Translations under genes and position numbers: made by a program
Origin: Paracoccaceae bacterium
GTDB lineage: Bacteria; Pseudomonadota; Alphaproteobacteria; Rhodobacterales; Rhodobacteraceae
Length of the DNA: 64,000 nucleotides
NCBI GenBank assembly: GCA_016744015.1
Contig: JADGFD010000005.1
Location: 66,208 to 130,207 of the forward strand
Reading direction: 5' to 3'
Shown here: positions 9,887-51,990 of the stretch, one piece after another
Numbering within the stretch: the stretch's first letter is position 1
Layout: each line of letters begins with the position of its first letter
Notes under the pieces: generated by a model
Told to the model about the DNA's origin: nothing
Seen by the model: the letters and a program-made list of their open reading frames with translations, nothing else
Database searches by the model: none

Positions 9887-10153
9887 ATGTCAGACCTTCT
9901 CTCCACCTTTACGCTCGCTGATCTTGTCGGAATCTTCGGCACACTGATCGTAACAGCCGCCTACTTTGCCACCCAGATGCGATACTTAAATTCTGATGAC
10001 ATTTTGTTTCCCGTCGCCAATCTCGCTGGCTCTCTTTTTATCGTATATTCCCTTGTCTTCTCCTTTAATCTCGCCTCGGCCCTCATGGAATTTTTCTGGA
10101 TTCTCATCAGCCTAGCAGGAATCATCAATTACCTGCGCCGCAAAAGGGCTTGA
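9887..10153 (+). CDS. small membrane protein (2-3 TM)
   Basis: Hydrophobic 88-aa ORF whose stop overlaps the MoxR gene. Confidence 0.45.
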   Translation: MSDLLSTFTLADLVGIFGTLIVTAAYFATQMRYLNSDDILFPVANLAGSLFIVYSLVFSFNLASALMEFFWILISLAGIINYLRRKRA

Positions 10154-10196
10154 CGGCCGCGCGCTGTCGCCATCTACTTCCCTCAAAAGGATACGC

Positions 10197-11109
10197 CATG
10201 CCCTTGCCCGATAGCATCGAAGCCACCGAAAAAATGCTCGCCGATACCGGCTATATCTGCCCGCGAGCGCTGGCAACGGTAGCTTTCCTTTCGCTCAAGC
10301 TGGGCCGCCCGCTTTTCCTTGAAGGCGAAGCCGGTGTTGGCAAAACCGAGATCGCCAAAGCGCTCGCTAAAGGGCTGGGCCGCCGCCTTATCCGGCTGCA
10401 ATGCTATGAGGGCTTGGATGCCAACAGCGCCGTTTACGAATGGAATTTCGCGGCGCAAATGGTGGCTATCCGCACCGCAGAAGCCACCGATAGCACCAAT
10501 CGCAAAGCCCTCACCGACGAGCTATTCTCCGACGAATTCCTCATCCGCCGCCCACTCTTGGAAGCCATGCAACCCCAGCGCGGCGGCCCACCCGTGCTGC
10601 TGATAGACGAGCTAGACCGCACCGATGAGCCATTCGAGGCCTTCCTTTTGGAAGCCCTATCAGATTTCCAAGTCACCATCCCCGAGCTAGGCACCATCAA
10701 GGCCCCCGAGCCGCCCATCGTGATTGTCACCTCCAATCGCACCCGCGAAGTGCATGACGCCCTCAAGCGCCGCTGCCTTTACCACTGGGTTGACTACCCC
10801 GATTTTGACCGTGAAATGCAAATCCTGCAATCCCGCGCCCCCGACGCCACCGAGGCCCTCAGCCGCGAAATTGTCGCCTTTGTGCAGCGCCTGCGCTCTG
10901 AGGACCTGTTCAAAAAGCCCGGCGTCGCGGAAACCATAGACTGGGCCAAATGCCTGCTGGCGCTAGATGCCGTCGCCCTCTCCCCCCAGCTGATCGCCGA
11001 CACCCTAGGGGCCATTCTAAAATACCAAGATGACATCCAAAAGCTCGTGGGCAGCGAGGCCAGCAAGATTTTGGAAGAGGCCAAGAGGGGGCTGGAGGAC
11101 GGCGCATAG
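10197..11109 (+). CDS. MoxR-family AAA+ ATPase (CoxD-like)
   Basis: Walker A 'LEGEAGVGKTEIAKALA' and Walker B 'LLIDELDR'. SD AAGGA lies before ATG 10197; the alternative start is 10150. Confidence 0.85.
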
Positions 11110-11184
11110 AGACAGCACAACAAGCACTGGCATTTTCGCCCGCACAACGTATGCTTGCGTTGATAAACGAAAAGTAACCCACTC

Positions 11185-12426
11185 ATGAAAAAAACCATTG
11201 CCCTCCCCTTAGCTGCCGTCGCCCTTGTTGGCATGCTGGCCTTCGTCGCGTTTGTGCAGCTTACACCGGCCACAAGCCAACCCGTTCCCGAGCCTGCCGG
11301 AACCTACCCCGCTGACCACATCATCCGCATCACCGCGCTGTTGGAGTTTGACGGCAAGCCCGTGGTGGTAGACGAGCTTGTTACCTGCCTTGCCGAGGGC
11401 GCGGGCGGTTCTACCTCTGGGCGGCAGTTTTTGAGCTTCAGGCCCAATCGTATTCTGGTTGCCGTAGATACGCCTGATGGCGGGATGATCAGGTTTTCGG
11501 TTTTTCGCAGCTTGTGCTACGCTTATGGCAAAACTTGGGGTGAGACCGAAACCGAACGAACAATCCCTGATGGGTGGACGCCGGTTCTCACATGGTTTGA
11601 TGATCGAAATCCGCAAGAGTGGGTTGAAGGAATCATATACATCTCGGAAACCGCACTGAACGCCGAAAATGGACGCTTGCGGATCATCGAGGATTTTGCC
11701 CTCACCATTCCCGAACACCCATTTACGGAAAGCCTTCTGACCAAAGCCGAAGCGCAAGCGGTTGAGCGGGATTATTGGCAGGGGGTGCCACCAACCGGAT
11801 CTGATGTTTTTTGGCAATCCTCCGGTAGATTGGGCACTATGATTGAAGTGCCCGAAAGCATGTGGCGCAACCCCGCCACCCATTATCTACGCACTTCAAT
11901 TCATGCTAACCGCGATACAGACCCGCAGCCGCTTATCGATTTCCTTGACGGACTTGGCGAGGGGGATAGGATTATTGCGATTCCCTACTATCTGGATCCG
12001 GATGTTGGGCGAGACTCGGGGGATATGATGACTGAGGAAGCCCTGCGAATGTTGGATAGTTTTAACTATGGAAGGCATCCAGCAATGTTTGACTATCTGG
12101 AGCGCGGCGTTCCAAAAACAGATGCAGAACGTTTTGGTTTGCTGATTTCCGAAAATTCAACGCTCCGGTATCAGAATATCCCACTTGATTTGAACAGGTT
12201 CGATACGCGCATCCCTTGGACCTGCGAGGACAACGTAGCTACGCCCGATTTTGATAATCCGGGGCTGATTTATATCTTCACTCGCTCCCAACGCTGCACA
12301 CATCCTAACAATTTTGAACGGCTTGATTGGCCAGGATATGGCGAAATACCGGAATGGTATCCGGATTATGGAAACATGTTTTTCGACCAAAAGACCAAAA
12401 CTGTTTGGTATTACCGAACTAATTAA
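11185..12426 (+). CDS. hypothetical signal-anchored/secreted protein (413 aa), no recognisable domain
   Basis: N-terminal hydrophobic segment 'LPLAAVALVGMLAFVAFV'. GC is about 45-50% against about 62% in the flanks. Confidence 0.55.
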   Translation: MKKTIALPLAAVALVGMLAFVAFVQLTPATSQPVPEPAGTYPADHIIRITALLEFDGKPVVVDELVTCLAEGAGGSTSGRQFLSFRPNRILVAVDTPDGGMIRFSVFRSLCYAYGKTWGETETERTIPDGWTPVLTWFDDRNPQEWVEGIIYISETALNAENGRLRIIEDFALTIPEHPFTESLLTKAEAQAVERDYWQGVPPTGSDVFWQSSGRLGTMIEVPESMWRNPATHYLRTSIHANRDTDPQPLIDFLDGLGEGDRIIAIPYYLDPDVGRDSGDMMTEEALRMLDSFNYGRHPAMFDYLERGVPKTDAERFGLLISENSTLRYQNIPLDLNRFDTRIPWTCEDNVATPDFDNPGLIYIFTRSQRCTHPNNFERLDWPGYGEIPEWYPDYGNMFFDQKTKTVWYYRTN

Positions 12427-41669: not shown

Positions 41670-42393
41670 CTAAAACAAAAGCGAAGGTTCAACAGATAGC
41701 AACCGCACAAAAGCGGGTGATACCAGTTCAAGCCCCGCCTCTGACAAACGGGAGCAAAGTGCAAGAAGCTGAGGCTCGACACCTTCATCCCAAGGCCAAA
41801 ATCGTGTTTCCACCATTTCCGAAATCGTCTGCCGCTGATCTATCAGCTCGGCAAGCGCAGGCGCCAACTCATCTGGAACCATTTCATTTGTTTTTAGCGC
41901 CGCGTTTATGACGGCCATCACAGTGATGTATTTCTCAAGCACGGAGCTACCACTGGCCTGCCATTGCGAAAATGCACCATGTGAATAGGCCCCGATTTCA
42001 TATAAGCCCCTGCGCCAAGCAGCTCTTTCGCTCGGGTCCGCGCAAGCCGCCAATGCCTTTGTAGCGCGGCGCTCCAAATCCCCCGCCCACATCCCCTTTG
42101 GCAGGCCTTGTGGGTAGGCGCAGAAATACGGCGCATCCTTAACGGCGGGATCGGCACTGTTGCGGTCAATTTGCCCAAACGTTGCCAGCAGATAAATTGC
42201 TGACACCCGCAGGGGCGCTGGCGGCGTATACCGTGCCTTGGTGCCAGATATTCCCGTAAAGCGCATCCATCGCGCGCGCCGAGGTTTTTGGGCTCGGGCT
42301 GATGAGGTTTCGGAGGTGCTGCGGAATATCCCCAGCTGCGCCATAGGCGTGCTCAAGGCTGGCCCAGTTGACATCATCCAATTTTTCAAACAT
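41670..42393 (-). pseudogene. hypothetical protein gene with an apparent +1 frameshift near 42229
   Basis: The N-terminal 56 codons (MFEKLDDVNWASLEHAYG...NIWHQGTVY) are in one frame. Plausible protein sequence then continues in another frame (PPAPLRVSAIYLLATFGQ...). Confidence 0.4.
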
Positions 42394-42402
42394 CAGCGGT
42401 CC

Positions 42403-44235
42403 TTACGGCACAATGCGCACGGCCCCTTTAGCGGCCGAGCTGGCAAAGGCCGCATAGGCCCGCAGCGCGGTTGATACCCGCCGCGTGCGCCTTTCACTAG
42501 GCAGCCAAGGTGCCGCCCCTTTGGCGGCGCGGCGCGCGTCCAGCACGTCCTCTGCCACGGCAAGGTTGATAATCCGCTTAGGAATATCAATTTCGATAAT
42601 ATCCCCTGTTTCCACCAGCCCGATCAGCCCACCTTCCGCCGCTTCCGGCGAAACATGGCCAATGGAAAGGCCCGAGGTTCCCCCCGAAAAGCGCCCATCC
42701 GTTAGCAGCGCGCATTTTTTGCCCAGCCCTTTGGATTTCAGGTAGCTGGTCGGATACAACATTTCCTGCATCCCCGGCCCGCCCTGCGGCCCCTCGAAGC
42801 GGATGACAACCACGTCACCCTCCACCACTTTCCCCGTCAAAATCGCACTCACCGCACTATCCTGACTCTCAAAAACTTTTGCAGGGCCGGTGAACACAAG
42901 GTTGCTATCGTCCACCCCAGCCGTTTTCACAATGCAACCATCCAGCGCAATGTTCCCATCCAGCACGGCCAGCCCGCCATCTTTCGAAAAGGCGTTTTCA
43001 GCACTGCGGATAATCCCGCCTGCGCGGTCACGATCCAGCTCTTTGTAGCGATTATCTGTCGAAAACGCCTCAACCGTGCGTACGCCACCGGGGGCCGCTT
43101 TATAAAACTTCTCAATCTCAGGTTCGTTGCTTACAGCAATGTCCCACTTCGCCAGCGCATGGCCCATGGTTTCCGAATGCACCGTTGGCAGCTCGTCATG
43201 AATAAGCCCTGCCCTGTTCAGCTCGCCCAAAATGCCCATAATCCCGCCCGCGCGGTGGATATCTTCCATATGCACATTCTCGATTGAGGGCGCAACCTTG
43301 CACAGCACCGGCACCTGCTTGGACAGGCGGTTGATGTCTTCCATCGTAAAATCCACACCGCCTTCATGGGCCATCGCCAGCAGGTGCAGTACGGTATTCG
43401 TGGAGCCGCCCATCGAAATATCCAGCGTCATCGCATTTTCAAAAGCTTTGAAGTTTGCCACATCGCGCGGCAAAAGCCCCGCCTCGTTACCCTCGTAATG
43501 CCGCTTGGTGATGTCCACAATCCGCTGGCCACACTCCTCAAATAAGACCTTCCTGTCCGCATGTGTCGCGAGCATTGAACCATTGCCCGGCAGCGCGAGG
43601 CCCAAGGCTTCGGCAAGGCAATTCATAGAGTTCGCGGTAAACATACCCGAGCAAGAGCCGCATGTCGGGCAGGCCGAAGCTTCGATATCATCGACCTGTT
43701 CATCGGTGAAGCTATCATCCGCCGCCGAAACCATGGCATCGACCAAGTCGATCTTCTTTTCCAGATCATTGATCGTAACCTTGCCCGCTTCCATCGGCCC
43801 ACCCGATACAAAGATCGCCGGAACATTGAGCCGCATCGCGGCCATCAGCATCCCCGGCGTAATTTTATCACAGTTGGAAATGCAAACGATAGCATCAGCA
43901 CAGTGGGCATTCACCATATACTCCACCGAGTCCGCAATCACCTCACGCGAAGGCAGGCTATAAAGCATGCCGTCATGGCCCATGGCAATGCCATCATCCA
44001 CCGCGATGGTGTTAAATTCCTTGGCCACCCCGCCAGCCTTCTCAACCTCCCGCGCCACCAGTTGCCCCATATCTTTCAGGTGCACATGGCCCGGCACAAA
44101 CTGCGTGAACGAATTCACCACAGCAATAATCGGCTTGCCAAAGTCACCATCCGTCATGCCTGTGGCCCGCCAAAGGCCGCGAGCGCCTGCCATATTGCGG
44201 CCATGGGTAGAAGTGCGAGAGCGATAATGTGGCAT
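42403..44235 (-). CDS. ilvD: dihydroxy-acid dehydratase
   Basis: '[12 protein letters not shown]' and 'SGGTSG', with [2Fe-2S] cysteines. Confidence 0.95.
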
Positions 44236-44314
44236 GAGAGGCCCCTTGTGGTTATCCGGTTTTTACCGGATTAGCACAAGCGGCGGGGGGAGCGCCAGAG
44301 GGTTCAGGCGGAGG

Positions 44315-45190
44315 CTAAATGTTCCAATACCGGACAGGGTTTTGGACGTGCCTCATGTTGGGGTTTACAATACGCTTCCCACGTTCACCTACATACTTTT
44401 CCCATATCTCATCTGGTGCGACCATCCCTTCAAATGCAGATCGGTCCGGCTCGTCAAATGGTTTGTCTGGAAAGATATTACGGGTAGCTTCTCTCCATCC
44501 CTTTTTATCAACCACAAACGCACCAACAACCACACCCCTTACAACAGCCAACACATAGTCGGCTTTGTTCGCCCTATTTCTGCTCAGCCTCCATGCGAAT
44601 CGGACTTGTCTGTAAATTTGTTGCCGCTCAGGATCGTCCGCATTCATTGACTTAAGTCTATTAATATTTATCAAAACGAGTTTGTCTGTTGGAGTTTTGT
44701 CCAATTCAGGCAAATCATATTTATCCATAATTTGAAGAACATGCATTGGCCCTCGGTCAGAGCTTCCATGCCCACCTTGAGAGTTAGTTAATCCAGGGAA
44801 AGCATCAATAAGCGCTGCTTCGACCTCAAAAATTGCAGGTTTGGGAATCCCGTGCCTGTGTATAATATGAATGACTTTGAGTTGGGCTCGTTTTATTTCA
44901 TTAATCCGGCCTATTTTGGCTCCCAATTCATCCTCGTTATCCACATCCTCTCCGTCAGTAGTCGCGTTTAAACGTATCTGATCTGCTTGGGCTTTGGCAA
45001 ACTCGCCCGAGGCATGATGGAACACACGGTTTTTCACCCCCTTACCCACATAGAAAGTTTCTCCATTTCGTGGGTCCACAAGGCGATAGACATAGTTCCC
45101 CAAATCTTTGATCGCTTGCTCACTAAATTGTTTTTCCTTTTTGGGTGTGCTCAATGCTTTTCTTCCTTGGGTTGCACCCCAATCCACCAC
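44315..45190 (-). CDS. GIY-YIG nuclease-domain protein with a ~170-aa C-terminal domain of unknown function
   Basis: 'GNYVYRLVDPRNGETFYVGKGVKNRVFHH' (GIY...YVG...NR..H). Gene GC is about 41%. Probable start TTG 45157, preceded by SD AAGGAAG. Confidence 0.7.
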   Translation of the reverse strand: MVDWGATQGRKALSTPKKEKQFSEQAIKDLGNYVYRLVDPRNGETFYVGKGVKNRVFHHASGEFAKAQADQIRLNATTDGEDVDNEDELGAKIGRINEIKRAQLKVIHIIHRHGIPKPAIFEVEAALIDAFPGLTNSQGGHGSSDRGPMHVLQIMDKYDLPELDKTPTDKLVLININRLKSMNADDPERQQIYRQVRFAWRLSRNRANKADYVLAVVRGVVVGAFVVDKKGWREATRNIFPDKPFDEPDRSAFEGMVAPDEIWEKYVGERGKRIVNPNMRHVQNPVRYWNI

Positions 45191-45213
45191 AAAAGGACGG
45201 GCGCTTCAAGACA

Positions 45214-45579
45214 TCATTCTTGATCCATTGTTACCCTGCACTGAAAGCAATTATTCCGCGCCGAGCGCACATCCACAAAAGCCACGCCTGCCCGCGCCAG
45301 TATTTCCGTCCCCATCCGCTCAATATCCGCTGCCAACGTGATTTGCCCTGTGCCATACACAATCCGGTAATCGGCGCTGTAGCCTTTTAGCAAATAGTCA
45401 GGGCTGGATTGCAAGGCTGGCGGAATGCCCGTCCCGCGCCAAGGCGTGCAATTGTTAGCACATAAAAAGATCGGGCCCATTTCTGCATAGGGCTTAATAG
45501 TGGGAAATGGCCCTCTCGGCTTGAAATCCATAGTCATCAACCCCGCCTTGGCGGATATCTGTAACCCATGCTTGGTCAT
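45214..45579 (-). CDS. hypothetical protein (121 codons), no recognised domain
   Basis: ORF immediately upstream of the GIY-YIG gene on the same strand (23-nt gap). Confidence 0.35.
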   Translation of the reverse strand: MTKHGLQISAKAGLMTMDFKPRGPFPTIKPYAEMGPIFLCANNCTPWRGTGIPPALQSSPDYLLKGYSADYRIVYGTGQITLAADIERMGTEILARAGVAFVDVRSARNNCFQCRVTMDQE

Positions 45580-45722
45580 AGGGATGAAATGTGAGGTTCA
45601 TGTTCTTACTCCAAATAGTGTGTTGCACTCTTGGAGCAAACGCCCTTTAATCTCGACCCGAAACCTGCGGGTTATGTAGAGTAGGCTTTGACCCACCAAT
45701 GGTGCGTGGGAAACCACGCACC

Positions 45723-46505
45723 CTACCTCGCCGCGCTCTGCAAGCTGCTTTCCAGCAAGTGCTTCGTATAGGGATGCTCGGTGCGCATGGCACGCATGTC
45801 CTCCACCCCCAACGTTTCAACGATTTCGCCAAGCTGCATCACGGCGATATCGTGGCAGATATGCCCCACCACCGCGAGATCATGGCTCACCATCAAATAG
45901 GTCAGCTTATGCTCGGCCCGCAGATCTGTCAGCAGGTTGAGTATTTCGGCTTGCACCGAAACATCCAGCGCCGAAGTGGGCTCATCCAGCAGCAGGATTT
46001 GCGGCTCAGGGGCCAAGGCACGTGCAATCGCCACGCGCTGGCGCTGGCCGCCAGAAAGCTGGTGCGGGTAGCGAAACCGGAAAGATGGGCCAAGGCCCAC
46101 ATCATCCAGCAGCTTGGAAATGCGGGTATCAATATCCTTAAACCCGTGCAATGAAAGCGTTTCGCTCAGCACTTGGTCAACCGAATGGCGGGGGTGCAAG
46201 CTGGCGTAGGGGTCTTGAAACACCATTTGCACGGCTCGATAGAAATCACGCGAGCGTGGGGTTTCGACAGGTTTGCCCAGAATATCAATTTTGCCAGACC
46301 ACGTAGGCGCCAGCCCCATGATCGCCCGCAAAATTGTGGATTTACCCGAACCACTTTCGCCAACCAGCCCAAAGCTGCCACCCTTGGGCACGCTCAGCTT
46401 GGCGTTTTTCACAGCGTCCACCCGCTCTTCATACTCTCCGAACCAAACGTTCAGGCCTTCAATTTCAATACCACTCATCCGCTTACACTTTCCTCTGTCG
46501 CCCAA
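45723..46505 (-). CDS. peptide/nickel ABC transporter ATP-binding protein (DppF/OppF-type)
   Basis: Walker A 'GESGSGKST' and 'LSGGQRQRVAIARAL'. Confidence 0.9.
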   Translation of the reverse strand: MGDRGKCKRMSGIEIEGLNVWFGEYEERVDAVKNAKLSVPKGGSFGLVGESGSGKSTILRAIMGLAPTWSGKIDILGKPVETPRSRDFYRAVQMVFQDPYASLHPRHSVDQVLSETLSLHGFKDIDTRISKLLDDVGLGPSFRFRYPHQLSGGQRQRVAIARALAPEPQILLLDEPTSALDVSVQAEILNLLTDLRAEHKLTYLMVSHDLAVVGHICHDIAVMQLGEIVETLGVEDMRAMRTEHPYTKHLLESSLQSAAR

Positions 46506-51105: not shown

Positions 51106-51990
51106 TTAATCAAGCGTTGAGGTATAAACCGCCACTAGATTGTTAAACGAATTATCAATCATCGGCGTTGAGTTGGTGAAGGTATTCCGCAAGCTACCGC
51201 CGCCAAACACCATAGATATGCCCGCATAAAAGCGGCTCTCATTGCTTACATCGTCATTGCCGTTGTCTTCACTCGCATGTAAGCCTTCATAGCCTGCATT
51301 AGCATAAAAATTGCTCTGGCCAAGCCGCATAGTGCCTTCAAGACCATACACGGTAAGCGCCAATGGGTCGCTGTGAATGATGCCCAGGCCATGCCCAAGG
51401 CTACCAGTGATCATGAAATTGTCATTCAGGAAATAGTTGGCACGCACCTGCCCAAACAGTTCGTTGTTATAATCCAGTGCATTGTGGTCACTATCTGAGC
51501 TGGCAAAACCAAGCTGAGCGGCCAAGGCAATATTGCCAAACGTGCGCGCAGCTTCAATGCCATACCAGTTGCCCGGTCCGCCATCACTCCCATTTTCGTT
51601 ATATTGATAACCCGCGCCAGCAAAAGCACCAACTTTATAGCCGGCAAGATCGAAGTTAATGTGGGCTGTACCGCCATATGCACGGTAATAATCGGCCGAG
51701 TCGCTGCCAAGTTCGTAATTGGCATCAATCTGCCAACCCAAGCGACCGCCACCAATACCGCCACCCAATGATGCCTCTATGCCATAATAGCTGTAGGTTG
51801 GGTCATCATAGTCACAGCAGTTTTCATCTGCGACCGACGCGCCACCATAATAACCTGTTACATAGCCGCCAAAAGTGCTGGCAGCTGGTGCCATCACCGC
51901 AGTGCTAACAGGGGAAACATCATCAAACGAACCAGCCAACGCCGGGGCGGCAAAAGCCGAGGTGATCAAAAGTATAGAAATCGTTTTCAT
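51106..51990 (-). CDS. outer-membrane porin-like beta-barrel protein
   Basis: Signal peptide, Gly/Tyr-rich amphipathic strands and a C-terminal aromatic residue. Confidence 0.6.
   Translation of the reverse strand: MKTISILLITSAFAAPALAGSFDDVSPVSTAVMAPAASTFGGYVTGYYGGASVADENCCDYDDPTYSYYGIEASLGGGIGGGRLGWQIDANYELGSDSADYYRAYGGTAHINFDLAGYKVGAFAGAGYQYNENGSDGGPGNWYGIEAARTFGNIALAAQLGFASSDSDHNALDYNNELFGQVRANYFLNDNFMITGSLGHGLGIIHSDPLALTVYGLEGTMRLGQSNFYANAGYEGLHASEDNGNDDVSNESRFYAGISMVFGGGSLRNTFTNSTPMIDNSFNNLVAVYTSTLD

Follow-up and report, generated by a model that had tools for sequence, protein, structure and literature searches.

A probable single-gene PD-T4-3/CMoRE cassette beside ilvD in an uncultured alphaproteobacterium

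PD-T4-3/CMoRE and its counterpart upstream of ilvD

PD-T4-3, for which the crystal structures 9U75, 9U7U, 9U7Z and 9U8D have been determined and which has been renamed CMoRE, is a type IV restriction endonuclease consisting of a single protein (PMC12923530). It binds and degrades DNA containing 5-hydroxymethylcytosine (5hmC) or glucosyl-5hmC, and DNA with cytosine or 5-methylcytosine is not cut (PMC12923530). In E. coli, CMoRE gives about 10^5-fold protection against the phages T2, T4 and T6 without abortive infection (PMC12923530). It cleaves in the pattern CN11/N9G, assembles as a tetramer and is always a single-component system (PMC12923530). An acidic loop between alpha2 and alpha3 is autoinhibitory, and its neutralisation results in a toxic enzyme (PMC12923530). 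A homologue from Capnocytophaga, 48% identical to the E. coli protein, degrades the DNA of T4 and Mu, but not the unmodified DNA of T4-GT7 (PMC12366544). The subject of this report is a gene of low guanine-plus-cytosine (GC) content that lies upstream of ilvD in a 64-kb stretch of contig JADGFD010000005.1, referred to below as the window. The gene is very probably a PD-T4-3/CMoRE anti-phage restriction gene that forms a single-gene cassette.

The window comes from a metagenome-assembled genome, in which it belongs to a scaffold of 231 kb, and its nearest ilvD relatives belong to the Rhodobacteraceae/Paracoccaceae. A preliminary description of this DNA had drawn attention to a single-gene, low-GC segment directly upstream of ilvD, which is indeed present on the minus strand, where the gene order is ATP-binding cassette (ABC) transporter ATPases, DUF1203, the PD-T4-3/CMoRE gene and ilvD. 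The coding sequence (44315-45154, minus strand; list of open reading frames and public gene call) encodes 279 amino acids, starts with TTG and ends with a TAG stop codon at 44315-44317. The long open reading frame (ORF) opens further upstream, at GTG 45190. The TTG codon (45154-45152) is taken as the real start because the Shine-Dalgarno sequence AAGGAAG (45168-45162), read from the sequence, lies 7 nt upstream, the public call for the same contig (P0001) has 279 amino acids, and the N-termini of the homologues begin at the equivalent position of the alignment. The TTG start with a strong Shine-Dalgarno sequence, as proposed initially, thus agrees with both the public call, which is 100% identical to the TTG-start protein, and the homologues.

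The protein was compared with the PADLOC defence library, with Pfam and NCBIfam, with the sequences of the Protein Data Bank (PDB) by phmmer, and with known structures by Foldseek. The PADLOC search that had been proposed for this gene identified the PD-T4-3 model (E = 4e-71, 203 of 256 profile positions covered). The phmmer matches to 9U75 and 9U8D had E = 1.2e-50, and those to 9U7U and 9U7Z had E = 7e-48. The match to 9U75 joins residues 21-288 of the long ORF to residues 10-258 of the 262-residue chain, covering both domains. When the full model was used, 9u75 was the top Foldseek match (E = 5.6e-21, probability 1.0). The sole Pfam match was LEM-3_GIY-YIG (E = 2.7e-8), limited to the nuclease core, and the NCBIfam search gave nothing significant. 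Membership of the family and the folds of the domains are directly supported, and every defining feature of PD-T4-3/CMoRE that can be tested by computation was found in the cassette protein. The earlier suggestion of a defence element is strengthened, as PADLOC, the PDB sequences and the structure all lead to an experimentally validated single-gene anti-phage system. Both the family and its C-terminal domain had already been characterised biochemically and structurally (PMC12923530), and the gene is thus less novel than the preliminary description supposed.

The N-terminal nuclease domain (44792-45130, minus strand; Pfam LEM-3_GIY-YIG) carries the GIYxY-YIG motif and holds Y21, Y23, Y35, R43 and E112; N124 is situated just past its end. 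The motif, first noticed as YVYRLVD...ETFYVGKG...NRV..H and present in the protein, reads Y21-V-Y23 ... F-Y35-V-G. In an alignment of 40 homologue sequences (A1), the three tyrosines are invariant and align to Y17, Y19 and Y31 of CMoRE. R43, E112 and N124 are also invariant, with identical residues at the aligned positions of 9U75. From the alignment and the general GIY-YIG pattern, R43 and E112 are the putative catalytic arginine and glutamate. V111 and L115 align to the interface residues V92 and L96 of CMoRE, V111 being invariant and L115 at least 90% conserved.

The C-terminal domain (residues 134-279; 44318-44755, minus strand) is the modified-base sensor of PD-T4-3/CMoRE. It had been described as an uncharacterised domain of '~170 aa', but is about 145 amino acids long and corresponds to the known CMoRE sensor, the fold of which was found in the structure-based check. 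Its Y146 aligns to Y127 of CMoRE, a residue that contacts 5hmC. This tyrosine is at least 90% conserved and belongs to a nearly invariant D-K-Y.

The acidic loop between helices of the nuclease domain (residues 50-79, including TTDGEDVDNEDE; 44918-45007, minus strand) contains nine Asp/Glu and two Lys/Arg in 30 residues. It is the counterpart of the autoinhibitory lid of CMoRE and aligns to the DDDD loop of 9U75 with an insertion of about 16 residues. The loop extension (16-18 residues) is common only to the window protein and P0002, the product of a second occupied allele described below. Further small insertions are located in the sensor domain at residues 168-172 and 216-218. Neither the loop extension nor the two sensor insertions occur in the E. 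coli structures or in any of the remaining 38 homologues of the alignment. The window protein and P0002 form a sub-clade, the insertions of which may reflect a different autoinhibition or specificity.

The E. coli CMoRE proteins (ECOR68, O157:H7 and APEC O1) have the same two-domain architecture as the window protein, fall in the same length class ('type I') and carry no extra domain. The GIYxY-YIG motif, the aligned putative catalytic Arg and Glu, the acidic lid, the interface valine and leucine and the 5hmC-contact tyrosine are common to both, and in both cases a single gene without partners is found. The window protein differs in being about 36-43% identical to them, in its loop, longer by about 16 residues, in the extra segments 168-172 and 216-218, and in its host, an uncultured Rhodobacterales-like alphaproteobacterium. 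PD-T4-3Capno, known from metagenomic selections (PMC12366544), belongs to the same family and is a modification-dependent nuclease that works in a heterologous host; in a comparison with the window protein by description only, it stands out by also cleaving the carbamoylmethyl-adenine DNA of Mu.

Judged from its E. coli and Capnocytophaga homologues, the protein probably acts alone as a type IV enzyme that restricts phage DNA in a modification-dependent manner. The C-terminal domain would bind a hypermodified base in the incoming phage DNA. In E. coli this base is 5-hydroxymethyl- or glucosyl-hydroxymethyl-cytosine, and one homologue also cuts Mu DNA with carbamoylmethyl-adenine. The N-terminal GIY-YIG domain would then cut the bound phage DNA, while the acidic loop over the active site would keep unmodified host DNA out. 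A methylase or partner protein would not be needed, as the host would be without the target modification.

About 4,000 homologues were found in a database search. Apart from P0002, the nearest are 52-61% identical in pairwise BLASTP and 54-64% in the multiple alignment, and the nearest ones carrying names are from Rhodobacteraceae and Rhizobiales. Homologues are also present on plasmids of Rhizobium, Roseibium, Bosea, E. coli and Klebsiella. A homologue in Phaeobacter italicus (GCA_019801785.1; L156, 6001-6759) is a lone gene with 51.5% GC between flanks of 63-64%, and its neighbours are ordinary metabolic genes, for a PrmA-like methyltransferase and an oxidoreductase with a GcvT domain. A lone low-GC islet, about 10-12 GC points below its surroundings, is thus not confined to the window but is found in at least one further alphaproteobacterial family member. 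Jumbo phages of Serratia and Pectobacterium encode full-length, two-domain homologues at 29-33% identity. The phage records (H1-H15) include Serratia phage Moabite (NC_048792.1, 6418-7158) and Pseudomonas phage OBP (NC_016571.1, 158718-159200); the match is limited to the first two-thirds of the protein in OBP, in Pantoea phage Survivor and in some others. The jumbo-phage homologues are annotated as 'putative homing nuclease' or 'GIY-YIG endonuclease'. Phages may use the enzyme against competing phages with modified DNA.

Occupied and empty sites between DUF1203 and ilvD

Alignment of two occupied and five empty sites delimits an inserted cassette of 915-925 bp (44308-45229). The right junction (44307/44308) lies 7 bp after the stop codon of the gene. 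The left junction can be placed within 45222-45232, where the final codons of DUF1203 lie; these codons and the stop of that gene are therefore provided by the cassette, and the C-terminal tail of DUF1203 differs between the alleles. In the alignment both occupied alleles have the same junctions, and GTCTTGAAGC at the left end of the insert is common to the window and to L082/L083. The insertion site is flanked on the left by the upstream host gene DUF1203 (45214-45579, minus strand; Pfam DUF1203, E = 8.5e-21) and on the right by the downstream host gene ilvD, encoding dihydroxy-acid dehydratase (42403-44235, minus strand; Pfam ILVD_EDD_N, E = 2e-129, and ILV_EDD_C, E = 8e-73). Positions 44236-44307 (minus strand) are the ilvD leader of the host, which is present at empty sites too and is not part of the insert.

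The occupied and empty contigs were found by a metagenome scan with the DUF1203 protein; among species-representative genomes, the best relative was only 81% identical in ilvD, and none had the DUF1203/ABC-transporter neighbourhood. In the five empty contigs (L085, L086, L087, L088 and L090), the ilvD protein is 92-95% identical to that of the window and the gap between DUF1203 and ilvD is only 80-116 bp, with no GIY-YIG gene in it. The second occupied lineage (L082/L083/L084) encodes P0002, which is 77% identical to the window protein, at the same site, and the gene has 44% GC versus 53-55% in its flanks. Between occupied L082/L083 and empty L086, the last 102 nt of DUF1203 before the junction are 100% identical and the first 348 nt of ilvD are 98.6% identical. 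L083 and L086 come from the same Joint Genome Institute (JGI) metagenome, 3300027852, and occupied and empty sites are therefore polymorphic within one population. The check for presence and absence across relatives, which had been suggested for this locus, thus directly supports a real insertion, as one other lineage is occupied and five related DUF1203-ilvD loci are empty. No homologue was found within about 6 kb of ilvD at 80 ilvD loci of other species, mostly alphaproteobacteria with ilvD at most 81% identical, and the gene is not conserved at this position across the order.

Neither target-site duplications nor terminal inverted repeats were found at the junctions when 43900-45900 was searched and the junctions were aligned, only short repeats at chance level being present, and there is no integrase or tRNA at the cassette. 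The initial statement that partner genes, integrase and direct repeats are lacking holds, also after the search of the islet edges. The flanking DUF1203 and the ORF downstream of ilvD had no PADLOC match, and ilvD had only Pfam dehydratase matches. DUF1203 and the ABC transporter were considered as partner genes and rejected, being also present at empty sites and having no PADLOC matches.

A GC-rich hairpin, GGGTGGTGGGG-N-CCCCACCC, stands right after DUF1203 in three of the empty contigs (L085, about 2068-2110; L086, about 1321-1365; L088, about 613-660) and is probably the DUF1203 terminator. Neither of the two occupied alleles has it, nor do the empty L087 and L090, and it thus seems that the cassette was first inserted in a background without the hairpin and then moved by recombination. 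The empty site of L086 is not a deletion scar, since its hairpin is common to L085 and L088 and its ilvD leader differs from that of L082. These comparisons point to homologous recombination, with breakpoints near the insert, as the way in which the cassette was gained or lost. The unit that came to lie between DUF1203 and ilvD comprises the gene and some 70 bp of its own upstream sequence, about 0.92 kb in all, and would most likely pass among relatives by homologous recombination in the conserved flanks rather than by a transposase or integrase.

The base composition also sets the cassette apart. The ORF has 45.3% GC and the segment 44236-45213 has 46.9%, versus a window mean of 55.8%. Among all 978-bp windows of the 64 kb (mean 55.8%, standard deviation 3.0%), the lowest, with 46.0%, begins at 44301; it lies about three standard deviations under the mean and is the most extreme. 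The third codon position has 42% GC in the cassette gene versus 65% in ilvD. The sharp drop reported earlier is therefore real and marks the lowest stretch of about 1 kb in the 64 kb, but the value of '~41%' applies only to a 300-bp core (44650-44949, 40.3%), and the background is 55.8% and not about 60%.

Within the insert, CTTGAA, a 17-nt spacer and GTGGAT (45182-45210, minus strand) form a possible promoter. The CTTGAA is kept in the second occupied allele, and the consensus scan did not call this promoter. An Rfam search over 44100-45700 at E <= 1 gave one spurious match to a long non-coding RNA only.

The ratio of nonsynonymous to synonymous substitution rates (dN/dS) between the two occupied alleles is 0.065 (dN 0.14, dS about 2.2), a value that speaks for a functional protein under strong purifying selection. 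The dS of about 2.2 in the cassette gene is about three times higher than the 0.67 of the adjacent ilvD segment (window versus L082). The cassette alleles may predate the split of the hosts, i.e. may have been exchanged between lineages, a reading that is only suggestive because of codon-bias differences between the two genes.

Alternative explanations

Several observations weigh against a PD-T4-3/CMoRE restriction gene. With the characterised E. coli enzymes the protein shares only about 36-43% identity, and the recognised modification may therefore differ. The global template-modelling (TM) score of the full model to 9u75 is only 0.43-0.48, which we attribute to a different orientation of the domains across a flexible linker in the model, since the isolated C-terminal domain fits 9u75 well. 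Compared with the solved structures, the acidic loop has about 16 extra residues, and confidence in its model is low (predicted local distance difference test score of 62-64). A scan for promoters and terminators gave neither a terminator nor a minus-strand promoter that fits the sigma-70 consensus. We know of no phage with modified DNA for this uncultured host, and to our knowledge the experimentally studied members are from E. coli, Klebsiella and Capnocytophaga, none being alphaproteobacterial.

Some of these points would also fit a member of the family with another role or specificity, be it restriction of plasmids or mobile elements, recognition of another modification, or existence as a silent passenger. 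The sub-clade is divergent, 54-64% identical to the next homologues and with unique loop and sensor insertions, the gene has no recognisable promoter, and the Capnocytophaga homologue has relaxed specificity (PMC12366544). A silent passenger is at odds with catalytic and sensor positions that are intact and under purifying selection, and restriction of plasmids with the behaviour of PD-T4-3 itself, which is active in its native clinical E. coli strain and has no effect on plasmid maintenance there. Another role is on the whole improbable. It is quite possible that the substrate modification is a different one, which would be a variation within the same mechanism.

The cassette might also be a CMoRE-type nuclease that, besides acting in defence, promotes its own copying into empty DUF1203-ilvD sites. 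There is only a small chance that this is so. If it were true, such a self-copying nuclease would explain the gene-sized insertion, the identical junctions in two species, the lack of a recombinase and the breakpoints near the insert, and would link a defence enzyme with homing.

The same kind of evidence can be read in favour of a free-standing GIY-YIG homing endonuclease, which would cut the empty DUF1203-ilvD site, be copied in by repair and spread selfishly rather than be kept for defence. The cassette has the size of a gene and lacks an integrase, transposase, target-site duplication and terminal repeats; both occupied alleles have identical junctions, presence varies within one population, recombination breakpoints lie near the insert, and jumbo-phage homologues carry the annotation of a homing or GIY-YIG endonuclease. 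Homing endonucleases such as the T4 Seg proteins and I-TevI resemble the cassette in their GIY-YIG core, gene-sized insertion and presence/absence polymorphism. They carry a sequence-specific DNA-binding module, instead of which the cassette protein has the CMoRE sensor, and no NUMOD, IENR1 or helix-turn-helix module was found by Pfam in the full protein or in its C-terminal 148 amino acids. The whole protein, including the C-terminal domain, is homologous to an enzyme that needs modified bases and spares host DNA, and it has kept the acidic autoinhibitory loop. Once fixed, homing genes are prone to degenerate, whereas dN/dS is 0.065 here, and members of the family are located at unrelated sites in other genomes. 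A homing endonuclease of this kind is very improbable.

A housekeeping nuclease for DNA repair or of structure-specific type (UvrC, Slx1 or LEM-3) with an odd base composition, to which the sole Pfam match, LEM-3_GIY-YIG, and the published nearest structural neighbour of the CMoRE nuclease domain, UvrC (PMC12923530), might point, is ruled out by absence of the gene from five related loci and from about 6 kb around ilvD in 80 other species, and the protein, with 279 amino acids, no additional UvrC domains, a Pfam match confined to the nuclease core and a full-length match to a defence enzyme, does not belong to the UvrC-like family that the preliminary description had named as an alternative.

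Sensor domain, remaining features of the window and significance

According to the structure paper, the sensor domain of CMoRE has a distinct fold and no homologue in sequence or structure (PMC12923530). When a model of the C-terminal domain only was used in Foldseek, PUA-like families (YTH/EVE/ASCH) were listed with a probability of 0.2-0.6 and TM of about 0.3. The isolated C-terminal 148 amino acids gave no Pfam matches at E <= 10, hence none to EVE, YTH or ASCH, and the idea of a PUA-like sensor thus derives from structure. On the model, the chances are about even that the CMoRE sensor, instead of representing a new fold, is a PUA-like (YTH/EVE/ASCH) reader that has diverged strongly. This reading is more likely, but milder, than that of a self-copying CMoRE-type nuclease. 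The PUA-sensor type IV enzymes (EVE-HNH VcaM4I, McrB N-terminal domains and SRA-HNH) follow the same logic of a reader combined with a non-specific nuclease (PMC7897488; PMC7641849), and EVE-GIY-YIG fusions had been predicted earlier within this design (PMC7641849). Unlike these enzymes, CMoRE has the nuclease first and the sensor second, and it binds the base at an edge rather than in a pocket (PMC12923530). Should the affinity be real, CMoRE would become another type IV enzyme built as a 'PUA-type sensor plus nuclease' (PMC7897488), and if confirmed on the crystal structure, it would give a simpler evolutionary picture of modification-dependent restriction.

Conservation of the ilvD leader (about 72 nt) extends over seven lineages with or without the cassette, namely the window, L082, L085-L088 and L090. 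The leader contains an imperfect 20-nt hairpin (44241-44284, inverted repeat I1), which ends 5 nt before the ATG of ilvD and overlaps the likely ribosome binding site AAGGGG. RNAalifold gave two stems for the leader, with only two compensatory pairs, and there was no Rfam match to it. Control of ilvD at the level of translation or by an attenuation-type mechanism is a conceivable role for this leader.

Elsewhere in the window, a low-GC patch at 10150-12426 (plus strand) encodes an AAA_5 (MoxR/dynein-like) ATPase followed by a 413-aa ORF without Pfam or PADLOC match; the similarity of the ATPase to PADLOC candidate systems is weak and does not go beyond the P-loop level. Two ORFs, both public gene calls, are likewise without Pfam or PADLOC match: one of 239 amino acids immediately downstream of ilvD (41670-42389, minus strand), and one of 294 amino acids in a low-GC patch beside a peptide ABC transporter operon (51106-51990, minus strand). 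No other defence or mobile DNA was seen in the 64-kb window, judged by low-GC patches and PADLOC. A larger defence island was rejected, as the other low-GC patches encode sulphur transport, a LysR regulator, PilJ, RDD and the AAA_5 ATPase and give no convincing match to a defence model.

The PD-T4-3/CMoRE gene of the window is a further predicted member of a family already known genetically, biochemically and structurally, and its host is an uncultured alphaproteobacterium of marine type. The value added by this locus lies in a precisely bounded, polymorphic single-gene cassette and in the possible PUA-like affinity of the sensor. It is a clean natural example of turnover, in which a one-gene defence cassette comes and goes at a constant position, with a housekeeping gene on either side and without any mobility gene. 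Lone genes 10-12 GC points under the host, as in the alphaproteobacterial members, could help to find more members of the family.

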